Of a stretch of DNA of 64,000 nucleotides, positions 3,963 through 48,475 are shown one piece after another. Source of the stretch: an uncultured delta proteobacterium (lineage in GTDB: Bacteria; Desulfobacterota; WTBG01; CAIYCZ01; CAIRTM01); the NCBI GenBank assembly GCA_963804955.1, contig CAWDSQ010000008.1:64001-128000 (forward strand), given 5' to 3'. The translations under genes and the position numbers were made by a program. Positions within the stretch are counted from its first letter, which is position 1; each line of letters starts with the position of its first letter. The notes below the pieces were generated by a model, which was not told the origin of the DNA, did not search any database, and saw only the letters and a list, made by a program, of their open reading frames with translations.

Positions 3963-4390
3963 AGTTCAGAGTTCAAGAAGTTCGGAGTTCAAAGTTCGGA
4001 GTTAAAAACACAACTACCGAAAGCGGGATTTTAACCGTTGAATATGTCTTCATCACTCAACGCTGAACTAGCTCCGAACTGTCTTATGTCTTTACTCCGA
4101 ACACCGAACTCTCTTCGCTTCTTGAGCCGAAACTGTCCCTTTCATATCTTGACTCCGAACTCCGAACTATCTCGTCTTTTCATCTCGAATCCGAACTGAT
4201 TCCTTGTCCATGTCTTCTGAATCGATCCGAATCTTCGAACTCCTTTCTGTTTTCATCTCGAATCTTGAATCCGGAATCTTGAATCTCCTTGTCCCTGCTT
4301 TCATCTTGAATCTTGAATCCACGGAACATCTTGAATCTCCTTGTCCTTGTTTTCATCTTGAATCTTGAATCCGGAATCTTGAATCTCCTT
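3963..4390. repeat. Heptamer arrays AGTTCGG / CCGAACT / TTGAATC with a ~46-bp higher-order repeat
   Basis: Direct reading; TCCTTGTCC..TTTCATCTTGAATCTTGAATCCGGAATCTTGAATC-like unit about 3x in 4240-4390. Confidence 0.9.
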
Positions 4391-4418: not shown

Positions 4419-7400
4419 TCATAGTCGTAGCCGGCCGGCATACCCGGCCAGCAGCGCCCCAAGCCGCCCGTCAAATTTTTTAACCTCCCCGATCAGCTCG
4501 CGCATCCGGCTCACATCAGCCATGTCCGCAGCCCTGTTTAGTGCCTGTGTCAGTTCATCCGGCAAACCGGCCACCAGGCACGCGCGCTCAGCCTCATTGA
4601 TTTCAGCCTCACTGCATGCAGCCTGATCCGGGCTCTGCAAGGTATACGGCACATACTGCATCGTCTCCCGTATGAGGTCATCGCGGCGCAGCGGCTTGCA
4701 CAGATACCCCTGGCAGAGAGCCCGTATCCGCATCTCTTCCTCTTTCAGCGCATGCGCCGTCACCGCTATGACCGGTATATCCCTCAACGCCGTATCGCTT
4801 TTCAGTATCCGCATGAACTCGTAGCCGTCCATTACCGGCATCTTCATATCCAGAAGCAGCAAGTCCGGCTTCCTCCGCCTCGCCTTCTCCAGGGCTTCCT
4901 GCCCGTTTGCCGCCTCCTCAATCTCCAGGTTGCAGCCATCATAAAAGCCCTTAATCACCTCGCGGTTAGAGTCTATGTCGTCGACCACCAGAATCAGCGC
5001 CGGCTTGAACCTGACTTCATCATATTCTTCCCGGCCGGGCTCTGCTTTCTGTTCAAGCTCCCCTTTCGCCACTTCCGCTACAGGCAGTTCAACTGTAAAC
5101 ATGCTGCCCTTGCCTACACAGCTTTCCAGCCTGATGCGCCCATCCATCGACTCCACCAGGCTTTTGGTTATCGACAACCCCAGCCCCGTGCCGCCGTACC
5201 CCTTCATCGCAAGCCCCTTCAGCTGTTCAAAGGGCTCAAATATCCTCTCAAATTCCTCCTCCGGTATCCCGATTCCCGTATCCTGAACAGAGATACTGAT
5301 CTGTCGCCTGCTGCCCTCATCTTCCTGCATGCTTTGAGCTTTCACGAGCACCTGCACCGTGCCGGCGTCCGTGAACTTTACCGCATTGCCTATCAGGTTC
5401 AACAAAATCTGCCGCAGCCGCACAGGGTCCACAAGAACCAGTCCCGGCACTGCCTGCTCTACTTCAGTGCAAAGCTCTATGTGTTTTTCTTCAATCCGCT
5501 GGCTGAACATCCGGCACACATCCTCCAGCACCTGCCGCAGCGATACCGGCTCCTGATGAAGGTCCATTTTCCCGGCCTCTATTTTTGAAAAATCAAGTAT
5601 GTCGTTGAGCAGCGTCAAAAGAGCGTTGCCGCTTTCGTAAATCCGGTGCACATACTCATGCTGCCTTCCATCCTGCACCAGTTTTTCAAGAATTTCTGAA
5701 AATCCTATTATTGCATTCATAGGGCTGCGGAACTCATGGCTCATATTGGCCAGAAACATGCTTTTGGCCCGGCTTGCCGACTCAGCAGCCTGCTTGGCCA
5801 GCGCAAGCTCATCAGTGCGAATCCGCACCAGCTCCTCAAGATTGTTCTGGTATTCGGCCAGTTTTTCCTGTGCCTGTATTCGTTCGGTACTATCCCGGAT
5901 TGCCGCCAAATGCACTGCCCTGCCGTTCTGCAAAAAGCATCGCGCGGTAATTTCGACGGAAAATTCACCGCCGTCCTTTCTGCGATGCCGGCGATGGGGT
6001 ATTGTTATGATCTGGCCGACAGCAGGCAGCATAGCCTGCATATGCAGCATGCCATTTTCAGGCTGAGCCGCCATGTCGGTGATTTTCAACTGTAATAGTT
6101 CCTTGTGATCATACCCGTACAGTGCAGTTGCGGCTTTATTAGCCTGCAGTATGCGCGAGGAGATATTATCAATCAAAAAAATAGCATCCGATTCAGCATC
6201 GAAAAGCTGACGGTAATTCTCTTCGCTCTGTATCAAGGCCTCTTCGGCCAGCTTGCGCGATGTGATGTCCAGAAACGATAGCAGCACCCGTGATTCATTC
6301 CCGGATTTTATTTGTATCGTTGAACAAAGCAGCGCCACATCCTCCCTCCGTCCCTTGCGAAGCAGTGTCGTACGGTACTCGACATCAATATGCATTCTGC
6401 CGGTGCTCAGGGTATCGGCAATGGCCGCATATACCCCGCATGCTTCGCACTGAGGCCCGTATCCGCAGCCGCGCGGGTCGTCAAAAGAGTTAATGCAGCC
6501 GAAAACACCGCATACCCTCTCATTGGCGATTGCGCTGTTGGGCCATACCGTAAACTCGACAAAGGCGCGATTGGCCTGCACTACGCGGCGCTCGGCATCG
6601 ATCACACACAGCATGACCTGCGTGCCGTCGTAGATGGCTTTGAGTTCATCCATGCTGAGCTGAAGGTTTATCTCCATCTGCTTGCGCTCGGTAATGTCCT
6701 GAATAAATGCAACATAAAGATCGCTGTCGCGTCCCCCGATGGCATCTGTGGATAATTCCGTCGTGATGATCGTGCCGTCTTTTTTTATGAAGCGCTTTTC
6801 AAACGCATATGGCAATTTGTATTCGCCGCTTATAATGCGGGCATGTATATCCGTCTCCCGTTCAATATCCTCTGCGGGAGTCAGATCCGTCCATGACTTT
6901 GTGCGGAGTTCTTCCTCGGTGTAGCCCAGCATCTGGCAGAGCTTGGGATTGATATCAATCCAGCCTTTGGTTATGCTTGTCGTGGCGATGCCGATGATGG
7001 GCAGATAAAAGTAGGCGCGCAGATGCTCGAGCGAAGCCTTCAGGTCCCTTTCGGCTAGACGCTGTTCCGTAATGTTGCGGCTGTAGATGGCCAGCTGGTT
7101 TGCCCTCCCCGTATTGTCGATGATCGGATAGATGCTGTCAGTATAAAATTCCCCGTTAAAGTCTTCTTCAAGCTGGCTCGCTGTACCAGTCTGCATGATG
7201 GGAAACAAAATTGCCTCTGCGTTTTGCGGCTTGCTCCGGGGGGAAGCATTCTAAAATGCATGTGCCCATCAGCTCATCAATTGTTTTTCCCATCCTTTTA
7301 GCCATTTGTTCATTAAGGCAGACGAACTTGTACTCATGATCAAGTATGCACGCCGCATCCACGGTGGCATTGAGAAGGGCCCGGGTCGCCTCTTCGCTTG

Positions 7401-7821
7401 TCCGCAGCGACATTTCTGCCTGCTTGCGCTCCATCAGCAGGCGCCACTCGCGCAGACAGCGCTCGGCTGTGCGCGGCATGCTGGTAAACGCCTCCGGTGA
7501 TTTGACCACATAATCAAAAGCTCCCGCTTTCATGGCCTCAACGGCGACCTTTTCATTGCCGTAGCTGGTCATAACCACGATTGGGAAAAGGCCTGATTCC
7601 GATGGGGACGACAATACGTCAAGAGCGCTGCCGTCGGGCAGCTTCATGTCCATGATGGCAATATCGGGCGGCTGCTGTGCAATAGAAGTTACATACTGCT
7701 GCATCGACTGCGCGACCTGTACCTCATCCCCGGGCCGGGCTGTTTTGAAAGCCCGCCGAATGGCTTCGGCATGCGCCGGCTCGTCTTCTACGATCAGTAT
7801 CAGTTTGCCGCTGGTTTCCAT
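4419..7821 (-). CDS. Multi-domain hybrid kinase REC-PAS(x4)-HisKA-HATPase-REC; frameshift near 7205
   Basis: ORFs 7168-7983 (REC, start METSGK at 7821) and 4419-7208 ([29 protein letters not shown]-terminal REC) overlap out of frame. Confidence 0.85.
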
Positions 7822-7839
7822 GATACGCTCCCTTTGATT

Positions 7840-8040
7840 AAGTTCGGAGTTGGGAGCAATTAGTTCGGAGTTCGGAGTTGGGAGTTCGGAGAAAAAACAA
7901 ACCAAACTCATAACTCCGAACTTTATTAGTCCGAACTCCAAACGCCCACTCGAACTCCCTACTCCGAACTGTCTTATCTCCATGTTCCGAACACCGAACT
8001 CCTCACTCCGAACTAGCGGGCGTGGGCACCGCGCCCCTAC
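7840..8040. repeat. Inverted AGTTCGG/CCGAACT arrays plus GTAG-REP downstream of four-helix-bundle gene
   Basis: Direct reading; REP at 8017-8040 contains the stop codon. Confidence 0.9.
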
Positions 8041-8397
8041 TTCTTCAAAGAACTCATAAGCCCACTGAGCATTTTTGATAGTTCAGCACACCAATTCCTT
8101 GAGTAGTTCTCTGTTTTGACTATCCATAAAATGCTGCCTGTATGCTATCTCGGTTACAGCAACACATTCACGGGCTGAACGCCGTGAAATTTTTAAAAAC
8201 TGGTTGAATTCTGGTTTGCTCCCGCCGGTTCCTTCTGCAATATTTAAACAAATGGATATTGCAGCTCTTCTGAATTGATCCGTTAAAGAAAATGCTTCAG
8301 CCTTTGGAAAACCTTTTGTAATGGCATATACAAAATCAACATACTCCAGAGCCTTTTGATATACCTGCAACTCCTCAAAAGAAAATTTTTCTGCCAT
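8037..8397 (-). CDS. Four helix bundle protein (23S rRNA IVP / TIGR02436-like); 1-nt frameshift near 8090
   Basis: FEELQVYQKA, FPKAEAFSLTDQFRRAAISICLNIAEG, FLKISRRSARE; alternative frame gives the typical tail ELSKMLSGLMSSLKK*. Confidence 0.88.
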
Positions 8398-8419
8398 TTT
8401 TCACCTTTCTAATTTTGTC

Positions 8420-8533
8420 TCCCAACTCCGAACTCCCAACTGTCTTTAGGTCTCTGCTCCGAACTCCCAACTCCGAACTCTAAACTCCCAACTCCCGACT
8501 CCAAACTAGCGGGCGCGGGCACCGCGCCCCTAC
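8420..8533. repeat. CCGAACT/CCCAACT array plus GTAG-REP upstream of four-helix-bundle gene
   Basis: Direct reading; REP at 8509-8533 closely resembles that at 8017-8040. Confidence 0.9.
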
Positions 8534-8975
8534 TCCGGAAACCGGTTCCAGGCCAGCCAGTAGTAGCCGAATGCCTCCAGCAGCTGTGGTGAATTTTTCA
8601 AAATCGACAGGCTTCACCAGATAGCTGCAGGCGCCGTTGCTATAGGAATTGACCATGTCGGATTCCGCTCCTGATGTCGTGAGCACGACCGTCGGTATGT
8701 GTTTCAGATGGTCATCTTTCTTTATGCGGCGCAGCACTTCTAGTCCGTCTACTTTCGGCAGGCGCAAGATCAAGCAGAATAAGGTGCGGCATCGGATTGG
8801 CTGCCTGATCGGCATAGCCGTTCTGCCGGAACAGATAGTCAAGGGCTGCCTGCCCGTCTGTTACATGCACAATGCGGTTTGCTACGCGAAAGTCCTCAAG
8901 ATTTCGTCTGACGATTTCGGCATGCGCCATGTCATCTTCAACCAGCAGAATAATAATGGGGTCGCCTTTAACCAT
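8530..8975 (-). CDS. Single-domain response regulator (frameshifted)
   Basis: ILLVEDD, LILLDL, LPKVDGLEVL, IPTVVLTTS, YLVKP, tail GYYWLAWNRFPE* spread over three frames. Confidence 0.8.
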
Positions 8976-8999
8976 GAGAGGGTCTCCTTTTTGTTAATA

Positions 9000-9200
9000 G
9001 TTATGAGTTCTGAGTTCGGAGTTCAGAGTTAGAAATCAGAGTTCGGAGTTCGGAGTATTAAATCACACTTATCGTAAATCCGGAATTTTAAACCTTGCCT
9101 TATGTCTTCACTCCGAACTCCTTTATGTCTTAACTCCGAACACTCGCTTCGTACAGTCTTCATGTCTTCGAACTCCGAACTCCGAATCATGACTCCGAAC
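9000..9200. repeat. Inverted AGTTCGG / CCGAACT arrays
   Basis: Direct reading. Confidence 0.9.
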
Positions 9201-11537
9201 TCTTCCGCGGTAGCGTGAAGTAGAAGCACGCCCCCTTGCCGGGTCCCTCCGACTCAACCCAGATTGTGCCGCCATGCGCTTCAATGATACGCTTCACCAG
9301 AGCAAGGCCCAGGCCCGAGCCCTCCATGCCGGAATTGAGTTTTTCGAATAATCCGAAGAGCTTATCTGTGTGCCGCGGTTCGATGCCCATGCCATTGTCG
9401 CGCACAAAGCACATGCATATCGCCATTCTTTTTTTCTGCGCCGATCTCAATGAGCGGCGCCTTCTGCTCGCCCATGAACTTAACGGCATTGTCCAGCAGG
9501 TTCTGAAACACCTCCACCAGCCGCACCCGGTCGCCGAAGAGCAGAACGGGTTTTTCCGTTACCGTTACGCGCACGCCCCGCTCGTCGATTCTGCCTGCAA
9601 CCAGGGCAAGGGCCTCCTGCACGATGTCCTGCAGCGGCGCTTCAACAGAGGGGTTGGCCATGCGCCCGATGCGCGATAACTGAAGCAGCTCATCGAGCAA
9701 TGCAACCATTTTTTGAGAGGCCGTGTTGATATAGCCCAGATCCTGCGCCACCTGCTCCTGGTCGCCCTGGCCATATCCTCTGCGAGATGGCCCATAAAAG
9801 TTCTGATCGTCACCAGCGGGCTTCGCAGGTCATGGGATACCGAGTAGGTGAAGCGCTCCAGCTCGTCGTTTTTTGCCTGCAGAGCTTCTTCAGCCTGCTT
9901 GCGCTCGGTAATGTCGCGCATGATGTGAACAAATCCGGTTATTTTTCCGTCTGGCGCTTTGATCGGGTCAGCCACCACAAGAAAAAATTTTTCGCCAGCC
10001 GAAAACTCCAACATTTCGCGCACGCCGCTTGCCCGTGCTTTGACGATCGGGCAATCCGGGATAGGGTTTTCGGCGTGGTGAATAAGCTGGTGGCATTTTC
10101 CTCCCCAGCACAGCCGGGTAATCAAGACCAAAGAAATCAACAAAAGCGCGATTGCACTGCTCGACAGTACCATCAATGCTTAAAAGCGCTACGGGATCAA
10201 GAATGGCGTCGAAGGTGGCGCGCCATTTCTCGCTGGCCTGCCGGAGGCGATTCCTCCATTTTTTTGCGCTCGGTGATATCGCGGGCAGTTGAAATTGCCC
10301 CTGTCCGACGTTTCCCCCGGCGTCCTTGAGTACATGGCACCACCAGGCAAGCAATCGCTTCTGCCCGTCGCGGCGGCGCTGCCAGCTTTCAACATAAACC
10401 GTTTCTTCATTTCCTTGAAAAATATCCGGACCCTGTCATAGGTTGCCTGTTTGCCTTCAAAATAGAAGGCTGCCTCCTGCCGACCACATTATCGCCGAAG
10501 AACTCAATGCCAGCCTTGTTGGCCCAGGCATAGACCTTATTGGCGTCAACTTCCATGATGACATCCGTTATAGCGGCAAGCAGGGCCTCCTGCCGGTTGG
10601 CAAAGGCTTTTAGCTGCTGTTCAGCCTGCCTGCTTCGGGTGATATCGTGCAGGGTGACATATACCTGAAAGGGCGAGTTTTCACCGGGCCGGAACTGGGG
10701 AATAGCATTGACTATCGTCCATGTATACTCTTTGGTGCAGGGGTTCAGGATTCCGACCGTCATGTCCTTAACCGGCAGTCCTGTTCGTAAAGCAGCCATT
10801 GAAGGATGCTCATCGCCGGGCAGCAGGCCGCCGTCGTCCCGTATAACGCTCCAGGCGGGGGTGAGGGAGGTCCGTTCCAGAAACTCCTGCCGCGTCAGCC
10901 CGAAAATCTGCAGGGCCGCCGGGTTCACGTCTGTGAGACGGCCGTCGGCAGCCTGGTAAAAAGCGCCCTGCGACATGCCTTCAAACAGGGTCCGGTATTT
11001 TTCTTCGCTCCACCACAGGGTTTCCTCATCCCGCTTACGCTGGATGATTTCCTGCTCCAGCGCCAGCATTTTGTGCTCCAGCTTTCGAATAAGGGTCTCG
11101 TTGTACATCCGGTAATAGACTGTTTCATCATCAATACGGCATGGGGGCGAAGGGATATGGCCGGCCTGGTCAGCCTCCATAACCTGCCGCACAGAGTCTA
11201 AGAAAACCTCCGGTTCCATCGGCTTGACGATAAAACGGGCAGCTCCCAGACGTAAGGCCAGTTCTTCGTCCCTGGGGTCGGTATAGGTGGCTGTGTAAAT
11301 AATCAGGGGTATGTTTTGCAACAGGCTGTCGTGTTTCCATTCCCGCAGCAGGGCAAAACCATCCATCGTCGGCATCAGAATATCGGAAATTGCAATATCC
11401 GGAGGGTTGCTCCGGGCCAGCTCAAGTGCTTCGGCACCGTTTCTGGCGCTGATGACCTCAAAGCCATCGCCTTCAAGAATGGACCGGAGCAGATATATAT
11501 TCTGCTCGAGATCATCAACGATGAGGGCTTTTTTCAT
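9187..11537 (-). CDS. Hybrid kinase REC-PAS(x3)-HisKA-HATPase, several frameshifts
   Basis: ORFs 10407-11702, 9968-10354, 9565-10176, 9362-9751 and 9187-9489 join into MKKALIVDD...SVSHDLRSP...NLLDNAVKF...GSGLGL...LPRKSSES. Confidence 0.8.
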
Positions 11538-44088: not shown

Positions 44089-46305
44089 CTAACAGGCTGG
44101 CTGCCCGCAGCCGCCGCAGCCGGGTGCTGGGTCGCATGCATCGCCTATGCCGTCGCCATCGGCATCAAGCTGGTTGGTATTGTATACATTCTGGCAGTTA
44201 TCACTTGCATCGAGAATACCGTCATTGTCTGCATCACCAGGAGTCTCACAGGCTGGCTGCCCGCAGCCGCCGCAGCCGGGTGACGGGTCGCATACATCGC
44301 CTATGCCGTCGCCATCGGCATCACGCTGCAGGGGATTGGCAATGCTCGGGCAGTTATCAACAGCGTCACCCGCGCCATCTGCATCTGTATCAATCACCTG
44401 AGCAACTGTTGTTGTGGTTGTTGTCGGCTCCACAGACGTAGTCGTTGAGGTCGGTACACTGCTGGTCGTAGTCGCAGGCGGAGCCAGCACCGCAGTCGGA
44501 TAGCCATGCCACGGGTTTGTAAACCCGGTGCTTCCTGCCATATAGTAAACGGTAAAGCCGCTTGCACAGTTTAAAAAAACATTGGTTCCCATCGTTGGGG
44601 CATTACCATAAAAATATGCGGCGCTTAAGCCGGCGCAACCATCAAAAACCCACCACCCGATGCTTGTAACACTGGCGGGAATGGTCACGCTGGTCAAGCC
44701 GGTGCAATAGAGAAACGCATAGTGTCCAATGCTTGTAACACTGTCAGGAATGCTCACACTGGCCAAACCGGTGCAGCCATAAAACGCCCAGCGCCCAATG
44801 TTCAGCGTACCGTCCAGGATGGTCACGCTGGTCAAGCCGGTGCAGCTGTTAAAAGCATTTTCACCAATGCTCGCAACGCTGCCCGGTATGGTCACGCTGG
44901 TCAAGCCGGTGCAATAGAGAAACGCATACTCTTGAATGCTGGTAACACTGCCAGGTAGTATGAATCCGCCAGCCTTGCCGCCGGGATATGCAATAAGCGT
45001 TGCCTTCGTCTTGTTGTAGAGCACGCCATCTTGACTGCTATACACTGTGTTGCCTGCGTCTACATGAATACCGGTCAAGCCTCCACAATCATAAAAATTA
45101 ACCCCGACAGTTATAACACTGCCCGGTATGGTAACACTTGTTAAAGCAGGGCAACTCTCAAACGCATAATCATTTATGCTCGTAACATTATCGGGAATGG
45201 TAAATCCGCCAGCCTTGCCGCCGGGAAATTTAATAAGCAGATCCTTGTTTTTGTCGTACAGCACGCCATCCTGACTGCTATAGGCTGTATTGCCTGCGTT
45301 TACGTCTATGCCGGCCAGGCTGATACAGTATTCAAAAGCGCCAATTCCAATACTCGTAACGCCGGCAGGAATGGCCACGCTGATCAAACTCGCGCAGCCA
45401 TAGAACGCATAATCCCCAATGCTCTCTACGCTGCTGCCCATGGTCACGGCGGTCAAACCTCTGCTGTCTTCAAACGCGGACGGCTCTATGGTTGTCACGC
45501 TGCCGGGAACAGCAAACCCGCCAGCCTTCCCGGCGGGATATGCACAAAGCATTGTTTTAGCCTTGTTGTAGAGCACGCCATCCTGACTGCTGTAATTTGG
45601 ATTACTTGCCTCAACATCCAGACTGGTCAAGCTGCTGCAATATTGAAAGGCTCCAAACCCGATGCTTGTAACGCCGGCAGGTATGGCCACGCTGATCAAT
45701 CCCGTGCAGCCATAAAACGCATAATCCCCGATGCTCTCTACGCTGCTGCCCATGGTCACGGCGGTCAAACCCCGGCTGTCTTCAAATGCGGACGACTCTA
45801 TGGTTGTCACGCTGCCGGGAACAGCAAATCCGCCAGCCTTGCCGCCGGGATATTGAATAATTGCTGTTTTGTCTTTATCATACAGCACGCCATCCTGGCT
45901 GCTGTAGGCGGGATTATTCGCATCAACATCTATGCTGGCCAAAACAGGACAATAAATAAACACATACCACCCGATGCTCGTAACACTGGCGGGAATGGTC
46001 ACGCTGGTCAAACCTTTGCAACCTTGAAACGCTGCATCCTCGATGAAGGTAACGCTGCCCGGTATGATTATTCTAATCAAACCGGGGCAATCATAAAACG
46101 CAGCCTCTCCAATTCGTACAACCGGCATATCTTCGATGACCGAGGGTATAGTCACAACCCCTCCTGCGCCTGTATACCCGGTGATTGTAATAGTGCCGCC
46201 AGATTCCGTATACTGATAATCACCCCATTGCGCAGCTAAGGCCGACGTGCAGAAAAACACACACCCGATAAAGGATAAAATGAAAGTTGATTTCACAATC
46301 CGCAT
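44089..46305 (-). CDS. BspA-like LRR_5 surface protein with Thr-rich linker and TSP3-like repeats
   Basis: Signal peptide, many LRR_5 units with [10 protein letters not shown] inserts, TTTTTT linker, DADGDG.GD.CD. Confidence 0.92.
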
Positions 46306-46346
46306 ATAAACCTCCTTTTAAAAACCAGGTAGCTGCTTCCCGAAAA

Positions 46347-46497
46347 TGCACCATTCATGCCAGAAGCCGGCATCGAAGGAGAAATAAATTTTATCAAGCG
46401 GTTTAGAGTAGTTAGAAAATTACGGCATGCGTATGTACCTGCAACGCAGGGCTGTGCGGTCTATAAAGGCACATGTCGTGCCAGCGCAAACTGTGTC
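46347..46497 (-). promoter_or_regulatory. Sigma-54 promoter (46347-46362), IHF-like site (46392-46404) and upstream site (46468-46497)
   Basis: TGGCATGAATGGTGCA with exact GG-N10-GC spacing; TATCAAGCGGTTT; GGCACA-N18-TGTGTC. Confidence 0.72.
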
Positions 46498-46737
46498 AGC
46501 TGCACCGGTGGAGGATGAAAGGAGTTTCGGGTTCTTTATGTGTGGAGCAAGGAGTAAAACCGTGAGGGGCAGCCTGTGCCCGCGTGCTAGCCGGGGACCG
46601 GTAAAACCGCAGGACGACAGGCCGGCATGAATACCTTCTGCCGTTTTGCGATACACAGCTTCAAATGGACCACCCCGCCGCACACAGCATGCACGTTTAT
46701 ACAAGCGAATTGGCAACCGCCTCTTTCAGTCAGCCCT

Positions 46738-48475
46738 TTATACTGCTGCACAGGAAGGCTGACCGCAGCCGCCACAGCCGGGGGCCGGGTCGCAGACATT
46801 GCCGATGCCGTCATCATCAGCATCAAGCTGGTCAGGGTTAAACATGTTCGGGCAGTTATCAAAGGCATCAAGCACCCCATCACCATCCGTATCAATCGAG
46901 GGTGCTGTTGTTGTTGTTGTAGAAGGAGGTGTAAATACCGCTGTAGGATAACCATACCACGGGTTTGTAAATCCAGTGCTTCCTGCAGCATAGTAAACGG
47001 TAAAGCCGGATGCGCAGCCATTAAAAACCCTGCTTCCCATTGCCGGAGCATTCCCGTAAAAATATGCACCGGTCAAACGGGTACACGACAAAAACGCAGA
47101 AGACCCAATGTGCGTAACACTGCCGGGTATGTTAATGCCGGTCAATCCGGTACAACCATAAAATGCTGCATTCCCAATGTCTGTTACGCCTTCCATTATG
47201 GTCAGGCTGGCCAATCCGGTGCACCCATAAAACGCCCAACTCCCGATGCTCGTTACGCTGCCCGGTATGGTCAACCCGGTCAACCCGGCGCACATAAAAA
47301 ACGCTGCTGTCCCAATGCCCGTAATGCTGCCAGGTATCATAAATCCGCCAGCCTTGCCGCCCGGATATGCAATAAGCATGGTCTTAACCCTGTTGTAGAG
47401 TACCCCATCCTGACTGCTGTAGTTAGGATTATTTGCCTGCACATCTATGCTGGTGAGCCTGATGCAATATTGAAACGCACCTCCGCCGATACTCGTAACA
47501 CTGGCAGGAATTTCCAGGCTGATCAATTTCGTGCAGCCATAAAATGCGTAAATTCCGATGTCCACAACGCTGCTTCCTAAAGTTATGGCGGCCAAACCCG
47601 TGCAGTCTTCAAAAGCAAAAGCCTCAATAGTTGTAACGCTGTCAGGAACAGCAAACCTATCACGTCGTTCTGCTTGCGCTATCCAACTCACCAGACTTGC
47701 CTGCAGGATATTTAATAAGCGTTGTTTTGTTTTTGTCGTACAGCACGCCATACCGACTGCTGTAAACAATATTGTCTTCGTGTACATCTATGTTTGTTAA
47801 GCTGATGCAGTTTTCAACTACTCCCTCCCCAATACTCGTAACGCCGGCAGGAATGACTACGCTGATCAATCCCGTGCAGCCATAAAACGCATAATCCCCG
47901 ATACTCTCTACGCTGCTGCCCATGGTCACGGCGGTCAAACCCCGGCTGTCTTCAAATGCGGACGACTCTATGGTTGTCACGCTGCCGGGAACAGCAAATC
48001 CGCCAGCCTTGCCGCTGGGATATTTAATAATTGCTGTTTTGTCTTTATCATACAGCACGCCATCCTGGCTGCTGTAGGTGGGATTATTCGCATCAACATC
48101 TATGCTGGCCAAAACAGGACAAAAACTAAACACATAAAGCCCAATGCTCGTAACACTTGCGGGAATGGTCACGCTGGTCAAACCTTCGCAACCTTGAATA
48201 GCAGCTTCCTCGATGAAGGTAACGCTGCCCGGTATGATTATTCTAATCAAACCGGGGCAATCATAAAACGCAGCCTCTCCAATTCGTACAACCGGCTTAT
48301 TTTCGATGACCGAGGGTATAGTCACAACCCCTCCGGCGCCTGTATACCCGGTGATTGTAATAGTGCCGCCAGATTCCGTATACTGATAATCACCCCATTG
48401 CGCAGCTAAGGCCGACGTGCAGAAAAACACACACCCGATAAAGTATAAAATGAATGTTGATTTCACAATCCGCAT
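46738..48475 (-). CDS. Paralogous BspA-like LRR_5 protein, frameshift near 47660-47700
   Basis: ORFs 47660-48475 and 46738-47787; 5' region and promoter near-identical to the 44089-46305 gene. Confidence 0.85.

Follow-up and report, generated by a model that had tools for sequence, protein, structure and literature searches.

Why does a gene for a small four-helix-bundle protein lie between tandem arrays of a seven-base unit and of its complement, in the gap between two signalling genes? The question is raised by a stretch of 64,000 nucleotides (hereafter, the window) from an uncultured delta proteobacterium (GenBank assembly GCA_963804955.1, contig CAWDSQ010000008.1, positions 64,001 to 128,000), which includes a gene of the PF05635/TIGR02436 family enclosed in this way. 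The gene, its arrays and the palindromic repeats beside them are referred to here as the cassette. Coordinates are window positions, and as the cassette lies on the minus strand its parts are described in their order along the mRNA. The comparisons reported below favour, with modest confidence, the view that the cassette is a free-standing, insertable element akin to the intervening sequences (IVS) of rRNA, co-transcribed with its host genes and with arms that would form a stem for RNase III.

Organisation of the cassette

The end of an upstream response-regulator gene is followed by a first putative repetitive extragenic palindromic element (REP1, 8506..8533), the 5' array, a Shine-Dalgarno-like site with the ATG at 8397-8395, and the PF05635 open reading frame (ORF; 8037/8083..8397, the two possible ends being discussed below). 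After the ORF come REP2 (8013..8040), five copies of AGTTCGG, a 26-nt spacer, the CCSAACT array and the ATG of a downstream gene for a receiver-PAS protein. The 5' arm (8419..8507) consists of tandem AGTTSGG-type heptamers, seven units being separated by a 15-nt spacer from three more, while the five AGTTCGG copies (7916..8014, mRNA sense) are dispersed with non-repeat spacers between them. The 3' arm (7841..7889) comprises seven tandem CCSAACT units, including a degenerate one, and ends 19 nt from the start codon of the next gene. REP1 has a GTAG head and an 8-bp G+C stem closed by a loop of 3 nt, and REP2 is a near-identical copy of it. All of these elements were defined from the sequence, and the arms also from the predicted fold.

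This layout bears out an initial annotation, which had described AGTTCGG/AGTTGGG arrays before and after the gene, then CCGAACT/CCCAACT, with near-identical REPs at both ends of the unit; the arrays were found in the places described, and the two REPs agree at 27 of 28 bases. The further observation that the CGG/GGG variants are mirrored in the opposite arm holds for the three inner units, which read CGG/GGG/CGG against CCG/CCC/CCG in register, but the outer units match only in part. In addition, the window copy is slightly rearranged, with a duplicated REP and a second array between the ORF and the 3' arm. The segments 7916-8014 and 7841-7889 together have the same anatomy as gene-less hairpin modules in nearby gaps (compare 3963-4200 and 8999-9201). 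Many intergenic gaps of the window hold arrays of this kind, and an array beside the PF05635 gene is not special by itself.

Folding of a 731-nt RNA (8545-7815) gave a minimum free energy (MFE) of -255.8 kcal/mol, with z = -8.7 relative to 20 shuffles. Pairing of the arms across the ORF, which had been put forward as a possibility, is predicted by both the MFE and the centroid structure; in these, 8507-8440 is paired with 7889-7841, spanning the ORF, REP2 and the dispersed copies.

The protein encoded in the loop matches PF05635 with an E value of 2.4e-28 and 98.9 bits (cut-off 33.8) and TIGR02436 with 89.6 bits (cut-off 24). It also matches PDB entry 2gsc, a pentamer solved with five chains, with residues 7-98 covered (E 1.6e-14).

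The same design in other genomes

The host genome (G000; 4.26 Mb in 36 contigs, 87% complete) carries four PF05635 genes on three contigs. Every one of them has short tandem arrays on both sides, and the unit differs from gene to gene. The arm units are AGTTSGG in the window copy, AGTCAGR/CTGAATY, CTGTAGG/CCTACAG, and a 9-mer of GTTTCAR type. PF05635 was present in 36 of the 41 genomes formed by G000 and 40 relatives up to the same class. From about 150 matches, 93 were examined (the best per genome and 60 more that were full-length), and 89 of these had flanks of 60 nt or more at either side. Arms were scored as the inverted 6-mers common to two 120-nt flanks, one preceding the start codon and one following the stop codon, in cognate and in non-cognate pairs.

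The median for the 89 relatives was 15 inverted 6-mers in cognate versus 3 in non-cognate pairs; 52 exceeded the 95th percentile of the non-cognate pairs and 35 the 99th. The energy of the arm duplex had z <= -2 in 49 relatives and z > 0 in eight, and inverted pairing exceeded direct pairing in 67. Arm units were mostly of 7 nt, with some of 8 or 9. An independent wide set, obtained with a pattern scan of one genome per species (585 relatives found, 80 kept, 76 with flanks), spans many phyla including archaea and candidate phyla, and 46 of the 76 exceeded the 95th percentile. Among 19 viral contigs the medians were 16 and 3, with 10 above the 95th percentile. Inspection of the flanks of PF05635 homologues had been proposed in the initial annotation as one check of its reading; with 120 nt taken on each side, most homologues carry inverted arrays.

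Several observations were made in the course of these surveys. In many cases a PF05635 match is truncated by a contig end or lies no more than a few hundred bases from one. Flanking arrays probably break short-read assemblies, so that draft genomes understate the copy number. At least seven matches occur in 17 kb on a single contig of one relative (G037:C23:61262-78528), forming a cluster of cassettes. Three loci (L006, L016 and L022) have telomere-like G-rich arms of TTAGGG or TTTAGGG type, with the C-rich complement downstream.

Context, transcription and turnover

The cassette of the window fills the gap between two co-directional signalling genes, and most likely forms part of their transcript. 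This view of co-transcription is taken because no promoter or terminator of its own is apparent: a consensus scan of the sense strand over 7700-9100 gave no promoter-like or terminator-like site. Among the relatives, a coding strand could be assigned to only about half of the neighbouring genes. Of those assigned, 58 upstream neighbours shared the direction of the cassette gene and 7 did not; for downstream neighbours the figures were 63 and 3, and at 24 of the 25 loci callable on both sides both neighbours were co-oriented with it. A gene for RNase III is present in G000.

Two junctions were compared within the genus, namely those of the copies at C6:12946 (L001) and C1:156301 (L002) of G000. 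The L001 junction is filled in G000 and G004 and empty in G001 and G002; G002 keeps about 20 nt, including one unit-like motif, and G001 keeps 43 unrelated nt. The L002 junction is filled in G000 and G003. At the corresponding place in G001 the two arms and the downstream junction are the same, with about 120 nt containing a GTAG-REP hairpin in place of the gene, and G004 has one AGTCAG unit followed by an array of the AGTTCGG family. As junctions may be filled, empty, or occupied by arms without a gene, gene-less hairpins and cassettes represent interconvertible states of a single site. The best match to the window locus within the genus (G004, contig C362) was also considered as its empty counterpart and rejected, since this paralogous junction carries different arrays along with REP-like hairpins and is no clean empty site. 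In G004 there are many paralogous modules of receiver and kinase genes, separated by gaps of a similar kind.

Beyond the genus, unrelated Bacteroidota (L122, L133, L136, L137, L160, L167 and L176) have a cassette at seemingly the same junction, directly upstream of a gene with a MNAYIVAGYRTAVGKA-like start, which we take to be thiolase-like. This junction may be a recurrent insertion site.

Public metagenome contigs covering the window locus at 90-99% identity (runs X1, X2, X3 and X6) add a finer scale. Since positions 8431-8489 are missing from the contigs of runs X1 and X3, the length of the 5' arm varies among near-identical strains. Contig joints linking 7821 to 7995, 8043 to 8459 and 7890 to 8456 were set aside, as their sides were of 21-49 nt and of low depth and may derive from other loci or organisms.

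Relationship to ribosomal intervening sequences

The closest known parallel is the IVS in helix 45 of the Coxiella burnetii 23S rRNA gene. As described in its report (PMC4990558), this IVS holds an S23p ORF, preceded by tandem heptameric repeats directly before the start codon in strain-variable number, and its terminal inverted repeats form a stem that RNase III cuts in vitro. The same text names ORF-bearing IVS for Leptospira, Brucella and Xanthomonas, cites a pentameric toroid structure for a homologue (Lin 2006), and views the IVS as a selfish element.

The cassette resembles such IVS in that a protein of the same family lies in the loop of a long stem (here predicted) made of complementary termini, that heptamers in strain-variable number directly precede the start codon, and that it appears to have no promoter of its own and would be transcribed within host RNA. 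It differs in its location between response-regulator genes, not in helix 25 or 45 of 23S rRNA; a search of the window with Rfam gave no family reaching its gathering score and no rRNA. Also unlike in the 23S IVS, both arms of the window cassette are whole repeat arrays, and extra REP copies are present.

Taken together with the surveys, these likenesses suggest a widespread family of elements, each consisting of one PF05635 gene in the loop of a long hairpin, whose arms are inverted arrays of a cassette-specific unit of 7-9 nt. In the transcript the arms would form an imperfect double-stranded stem, which RNase III may cut as it does that of the Coxiella IVS. The cut would separate the insert from the host cistrons, and the element would therefore do little harm wherever it is transcribed. 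It could then spread and decay as a selfish insert, leaving gene-less hairpins behind. The RNase III stem is proposed because of the Coxiella analogy, the co-orientation with neighbours, the lack of own signals, the predicted pairing and the presence of an RNase III gene. The earlier suggestion of an mRNA intervening sequence or mobile cassette is well supported by comparison, through the shared design, the co-orientation, the absence of own signals, the filled and empty junctions and the likeness to the Coxiella IVS.

A number of results weigh against this explanation. Roughly one third of the cassettes score no better than non-cognate pairs by these crude measures, three (L030, L087 and L095) are free of arrays, and in three others (L050, L085 and L102) just one flank carries an array. 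The immediate flanks of the window copy share 26 direct and only 2 inverted 6-mers, with an arm-duplex z of +1.3, and pairing of its arms requires the distal array; this copy is atypical in the flank test because REP2 and the second G-type array separate the ORF from the complementary arm. The limited calling of neighbour strands mentioned above also counts here. A strand asymmetry of the arm duplex, which would have pointed to a stem at the RNA level, did not hold up: the sense duplex was the more stable one in 55 of 88 relatives (p 0.012), but this was not seen in the wide set (41 versus 34, p 0.85), and the numbers of G-U pairs showed no difference. The arms could therefore equally act as DNA. 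Lastly, the S23p protein of the Coxiella IVS is probably not made (PMC4990558), which bears on what the ORF may do.

Earlier work has established the protein family with its homology to Avd, the rRNA IVS with heptameric repeats, and heptamer arrays as such. In the full texts of the literature searched (supplements aside), no paper was found in which PF05635/S23p genes lying outside rRNA are associated with inverted repeat arrays on their flanks, and the Coxiella paper reports its heptameric repeats only within the IVS (PMC4990558). Nor did this search find an account of the cassette and its hairpin of arrays as a general element beyond rRNA, of its turnover at given junctions, or of the match to the gene-less arrays of the genome.

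Gene-less arrays and the role of the protein

The first rival, which can coexist with the IVS-like explanation and is held here only tentatively, is a cognate protein-repeat system. A pentameric ring protein would recognise the heptamer of its own cassette, in RNA or in single-stranded DNA; arrays beside the gene would then serve as autoregulatory sites, and gene-less arrays ahead of other genes as its targets or products, as in a TRAP-like translational regulon or a REP/RAYT-like pair. The evidence that bears on it comes mainly from the distribution of gene-less arrays.

Arrays were called with Tandem Repeats Finder as loci of period 7, 14 or 21. G000 has 379 such loci and 35 inverted array pairs; 25 pairs have a gap of less than 150 nt and are gene-less hairpins, and the like-unit pairs with a gap of 400-600 nt correspond to three of the four cassette loci. 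Among period-7 arrays outside the cassettes, 89 of 196 can be assigned to the arm families of the four G000 cassettes (56, 24, 9 and 0). For 169 decoy cassettes from other genomes, the mean number of arrays matched in G000 was 0.69 and the median 0, and the top decoys are orthologues of the G000 cassettes. Similar matches were found elsewhere: GTAGCTS double units number 50 in the cassette host G012 and do not exceed one in any of 40 other genomes, GTGRAA triple units occur mainly in G018, G019, G020 and G037, and Calothrix has 255 AGTCAAT triple units along with a cassette with an AGTCAAT arm. These matches are as expected from a cognate system, and so is the observation that arms travel with the protein above about 60% identity. 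The position of arrays relative to genes also favours it, since those within 45 nt after a stop codon are G-rich in 41 cases and C-rich in 10, and those within 45 nt before a start codon are C-rich in 53 and G-rich in 32. The G-rich arm comes first in 17 of 18 classifiable gene-less hairpins of G000 (5 of 23 were unclassifiable), a polarity that is uninformative on the direction of transcription because it reads alike from both strands.

Other genomes do not fit. AGTTSGG double units number 45 in G000, 53 in G015 and 13 in G004, but no relative of the window protein was found in G015 (100% complete), the only PF05635 match of which has other arms, and G004 has no orthologue and no relative closer than 39% identity. 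In G116 a CACTGGT-armed cassette is present twice, with only one other CACTGGT locus, and an AAGGTRT cassette host has only three further AAGGTRT loci. The orphan hairpin at the L002 site of G001 persists without a gene.

Cyanobacteria are known for intergenic heptanucleotide direct repeats of the short tandemly repeated repetitive (STRR) type, and a further example is TAACTGA. According to MacGregor (2015, PMC4679880), TAACTGA direct repeats are abundant before start codons in Beggiatoaceae, 15 cyanobacteria and five Bacteroidetes; the paper saw no mechanism for their spread and proposes an unknown post-transcriptional regulator, which would agree with a cognate protein. Four-helix-bundle, S23 and intervening-sequence proteins are not mentioned in it (PMC4679880). 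The repeats resemble the arrays described here in being tandem heptamers in intergenic gaps, often before start codons, with fixed orientation and a lineage-specific, patchy distribution that suggests horizontal transfer. In contrast to the published TAACTGA arrays, those of the present study occur as inverted pairs, with units that also make up the arms of gene cassettes.

The link was examined in cyanobacteria and in the order of G041. TAACTGA triple units are present in 18 of 201 cyanobacterial genomes, the top three having 925, 467 and 336. Each of these three has a PF05635 cassette with TAACTGA-type arms, and the proteins form one subfamily. Among 151 genomes sampled from the order of G041, the one with the most repeats (37 double units) carries a cassette with TYAGTTA/NNACTGA arms. 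Both findings would be expected of a cognate system, but no TAACTGA-armed cassette was found in G206 (29 triple units) or G131 (21). Moreover, members of the TAACTGA-cassette protein subfamily that are 63-74% identical carry unrelated heptamers; hence it is the arms, and not the protein clade, that predict the arrays of a genome, which also speaks against recognition by the protein.

The homologue Avd offers a further argument for the cognate model. Avd is a four-helix-bundle protein whose structure (4DWL) aligns with 2GSC, and its pentamer is tied to nucleic acid in diversity-generating retroelements (DGRs), as stated in a review (PMC10053308). The pentamer of 2gsc and the work of Avd with nucleic acid would be consistent with a ring that binds repeats. 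The window protein nevertheless differs from Avd, scoring 20.6 bits with the Avd equivalog model NF033474 (cut-off 80), and it is surrounded by receiver-domain genes, with neither a reverse transcriptase nor a template/variable repeat pair beside it.

The REP/RAYT (REPIN) system likewise has a single gene flanked by its own repeat, gene-less copies dispersed in intergenic regions, and a genome-specific match of repeat and gene. The cassette gene is also flanked by its own repeat, with gene-less copies dispersed in the same genome. It encodes a 120-aa helical bundle without a known catalytic motif, however, and not a Y1 transposase; its repeats are tandem units of 7-9 nt and not single palindromes, and some array-rich genomes are without the gene.

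The original supposition, in which the protein acts as cognate factor of the heptamer arrays, is circumstantial: the arrays match the genome's own cassettes, whereas G015, the G001 orphan hairpin and the 63-74% identical proteins disagree. Binding of its own repeats by the protein is plausible on the basis of a correlation that has counter-examples. The broader proposition, that PF05635 proteins are partners of heptanucleotide arrays including those of TAACTGA and STRR type, and that the cassette is both the carrier of a repeat family and the source or manager of dozens to hundreds of gene-less arrays ahead of genes, as a protein-addressed post-transcriptional network, is possible but on the unlikely side. 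If true, the arrays would be such a network and not slippage debris, and the cassette would move a repeat family between lineages.

A possible element acting at the DNA level

The second rival supposes a mobile element at the DNA level, in which the inverted arrays are terminal repeats or a single-stranded DNA hairpin or cruciform and the RNA structure is incidental. Insertion and removal would be due to a host or trans-acting enzyme, or to replication slippage. Such an element would account for the precise filled and empty sites within one genus, for cassettes in viral contigs and across phyla including archaea, for the many copies at contig ends and the variable arm length among near-identical strains, and for stems without strand asymmetry. 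The window copy is, furthermore, bracketed by the direct duplication of the REP (27/28), and two Y1 (IS200/RAYT-type) transposase homologues are encoded in G000. REP elements typically have a GTAG head with an imperfect palindrome, many intergenic copies and a RAYT gene in the genome; the sequence here has the head and an 8-bp stem, with only six copies in G000 at up to 5 mismatches and these two Y1_Tnp matches, and its assignment to them is tentative.

The cassette itself, on the other hand, has no transposase or recombinase; its arms differ among the four copies in one genome, unlike the ends of one transposon family, and the empty sites are without a regular target duplication, G002 keeping one unit-like motif and G001 unrelated sequence. 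The features by which an insertion sequence or a miniature inverted-repeat transposable element is recognised are thus absent. Strict co-orientation with the host genes would also not be required of such an element, and this explanation is considered unlikely.

Mere coincidence, in which the gene lies in a repeat-rich intergenic hot spot with unrelated arrays, could draw on the 36 of 379 arrays in the first 32 kb of the window, the gene-less AGTTCGG modules in adjacent gaps and the direct, not inverted, immediate flanks of the window copy, but is very improbable and already contradicted by the surveys, given that all four G000 copies on three contigs have arrays of differing units, that arrays accompany most of the 89, 76 and 19 copies, many in genomes without hot spots, and that the number of inverted words in common is far higher for cognate than for non-cognate arms.

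Reading frames, neighbouring genes and other repeats

The assembled PF05635 ORF (8083-8397) encodes 104 aa and ends with TGA at 8083-8085, before REP2, so that the last helix of the family is cut off relative to homologues. Omission of one base near 8105 gives a protein of 119 aa with the C-terminal helix restored and a TAG stop at 8037-8039, in the head of REP2. The upstream host gene, for a single-domain response-regulator receiver (8530..8975, minus strand), is in two frames as assembled, and omission of 8583 and 8768 yields an intact receiver of 147 aa that stops at TAG 8530-8532, in the GTAG head of REP1. The initial annotation had placed a stop codon in each REP, which is correct for the frames restored by these omissions.

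Frames were compared with the public metagenome contigs introduced above. Single bases are missing from these at 8105 (run X1), at 8583 and 8768 (X1, X2 and X3) and at 7214 (X2), and an additional C follows 9186 in contigs of runs X1, X3 and X6. The downstream host gene (7168..7821, minus strand, ATG 7819-7821), identified from the ORF list and profile matches as encoding a response-regulator receiver and a PAS region, is separated from a 929-aa sensor kinase ORF (4419-7208) by the one-base indel at 7214, and probably continues into it. To judge from these contigs, the apparent frameshifts at 7214, 8105, 8583, 8768 and 9186 are probably indel errors of the assembly, not signs of pseudogenes. 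The single-base contig differences coincide with breaks of frame in the receiver gene, in the PF05635 gene and in a histidine kinase gene beyond the receiver that is divided among at least four frames (see ORFs 8480-8975 and 9187-10410).

AGTTSGG occurs 72 times in the window as against 13.7 expected, and none of 100 shuffles reached 72. The first half of the window (1-32000, C8:64001-96000) is a hot spot of arrays with the units AGTTCGG, AAGGTTC, ATCTTGA, TTTGAAC and AATTTTG, mostly between two-component signalling genes. Further GTAG-headed hairpins with other stems are located at 260-290 and 380-407 of the window (example GGGCAGGTTTGAAACCTGCCC), and one is found in the loop of the orphan L002-site hairpin (L187, G001:C294); REP-like elements seem to settle in or beside array hairpins. 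At G000:C30:144800-146470, a 233-aa Y1 (IS200/RAYT-type) transposase homologue (71 bits) is encoded about 500 nt from three tandem modules of 140 nt, each composed of ATCTTGA and CCGAACT arrays. The window also contains tandem repeats of period 69 and 312 at 44660-47288, with Tandem Repeats Finder scores of up to 915, which probably lie inside a large repetitive protein gene.

Implications

PF05635/TIGR02436 is a very large family without a known function, and heptamer arrays are among the commonest unexplained repeats of bacteria. The intervening sequences of rRNA, for their part, have been a puzzle for more than 30 years. The present locus and its relatives connect these three subjects. The heptamer arrays of the genome fall largely in the repeat families of its own cassettes, and the cassette is a candidate for the vehicle by which TAACTGA repeats spread horizontally. 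If the IVS-like explanation is right, the cassette would be of a general kind, resident in ordinary operons too, with the rRNA IVS as one of its habitats.

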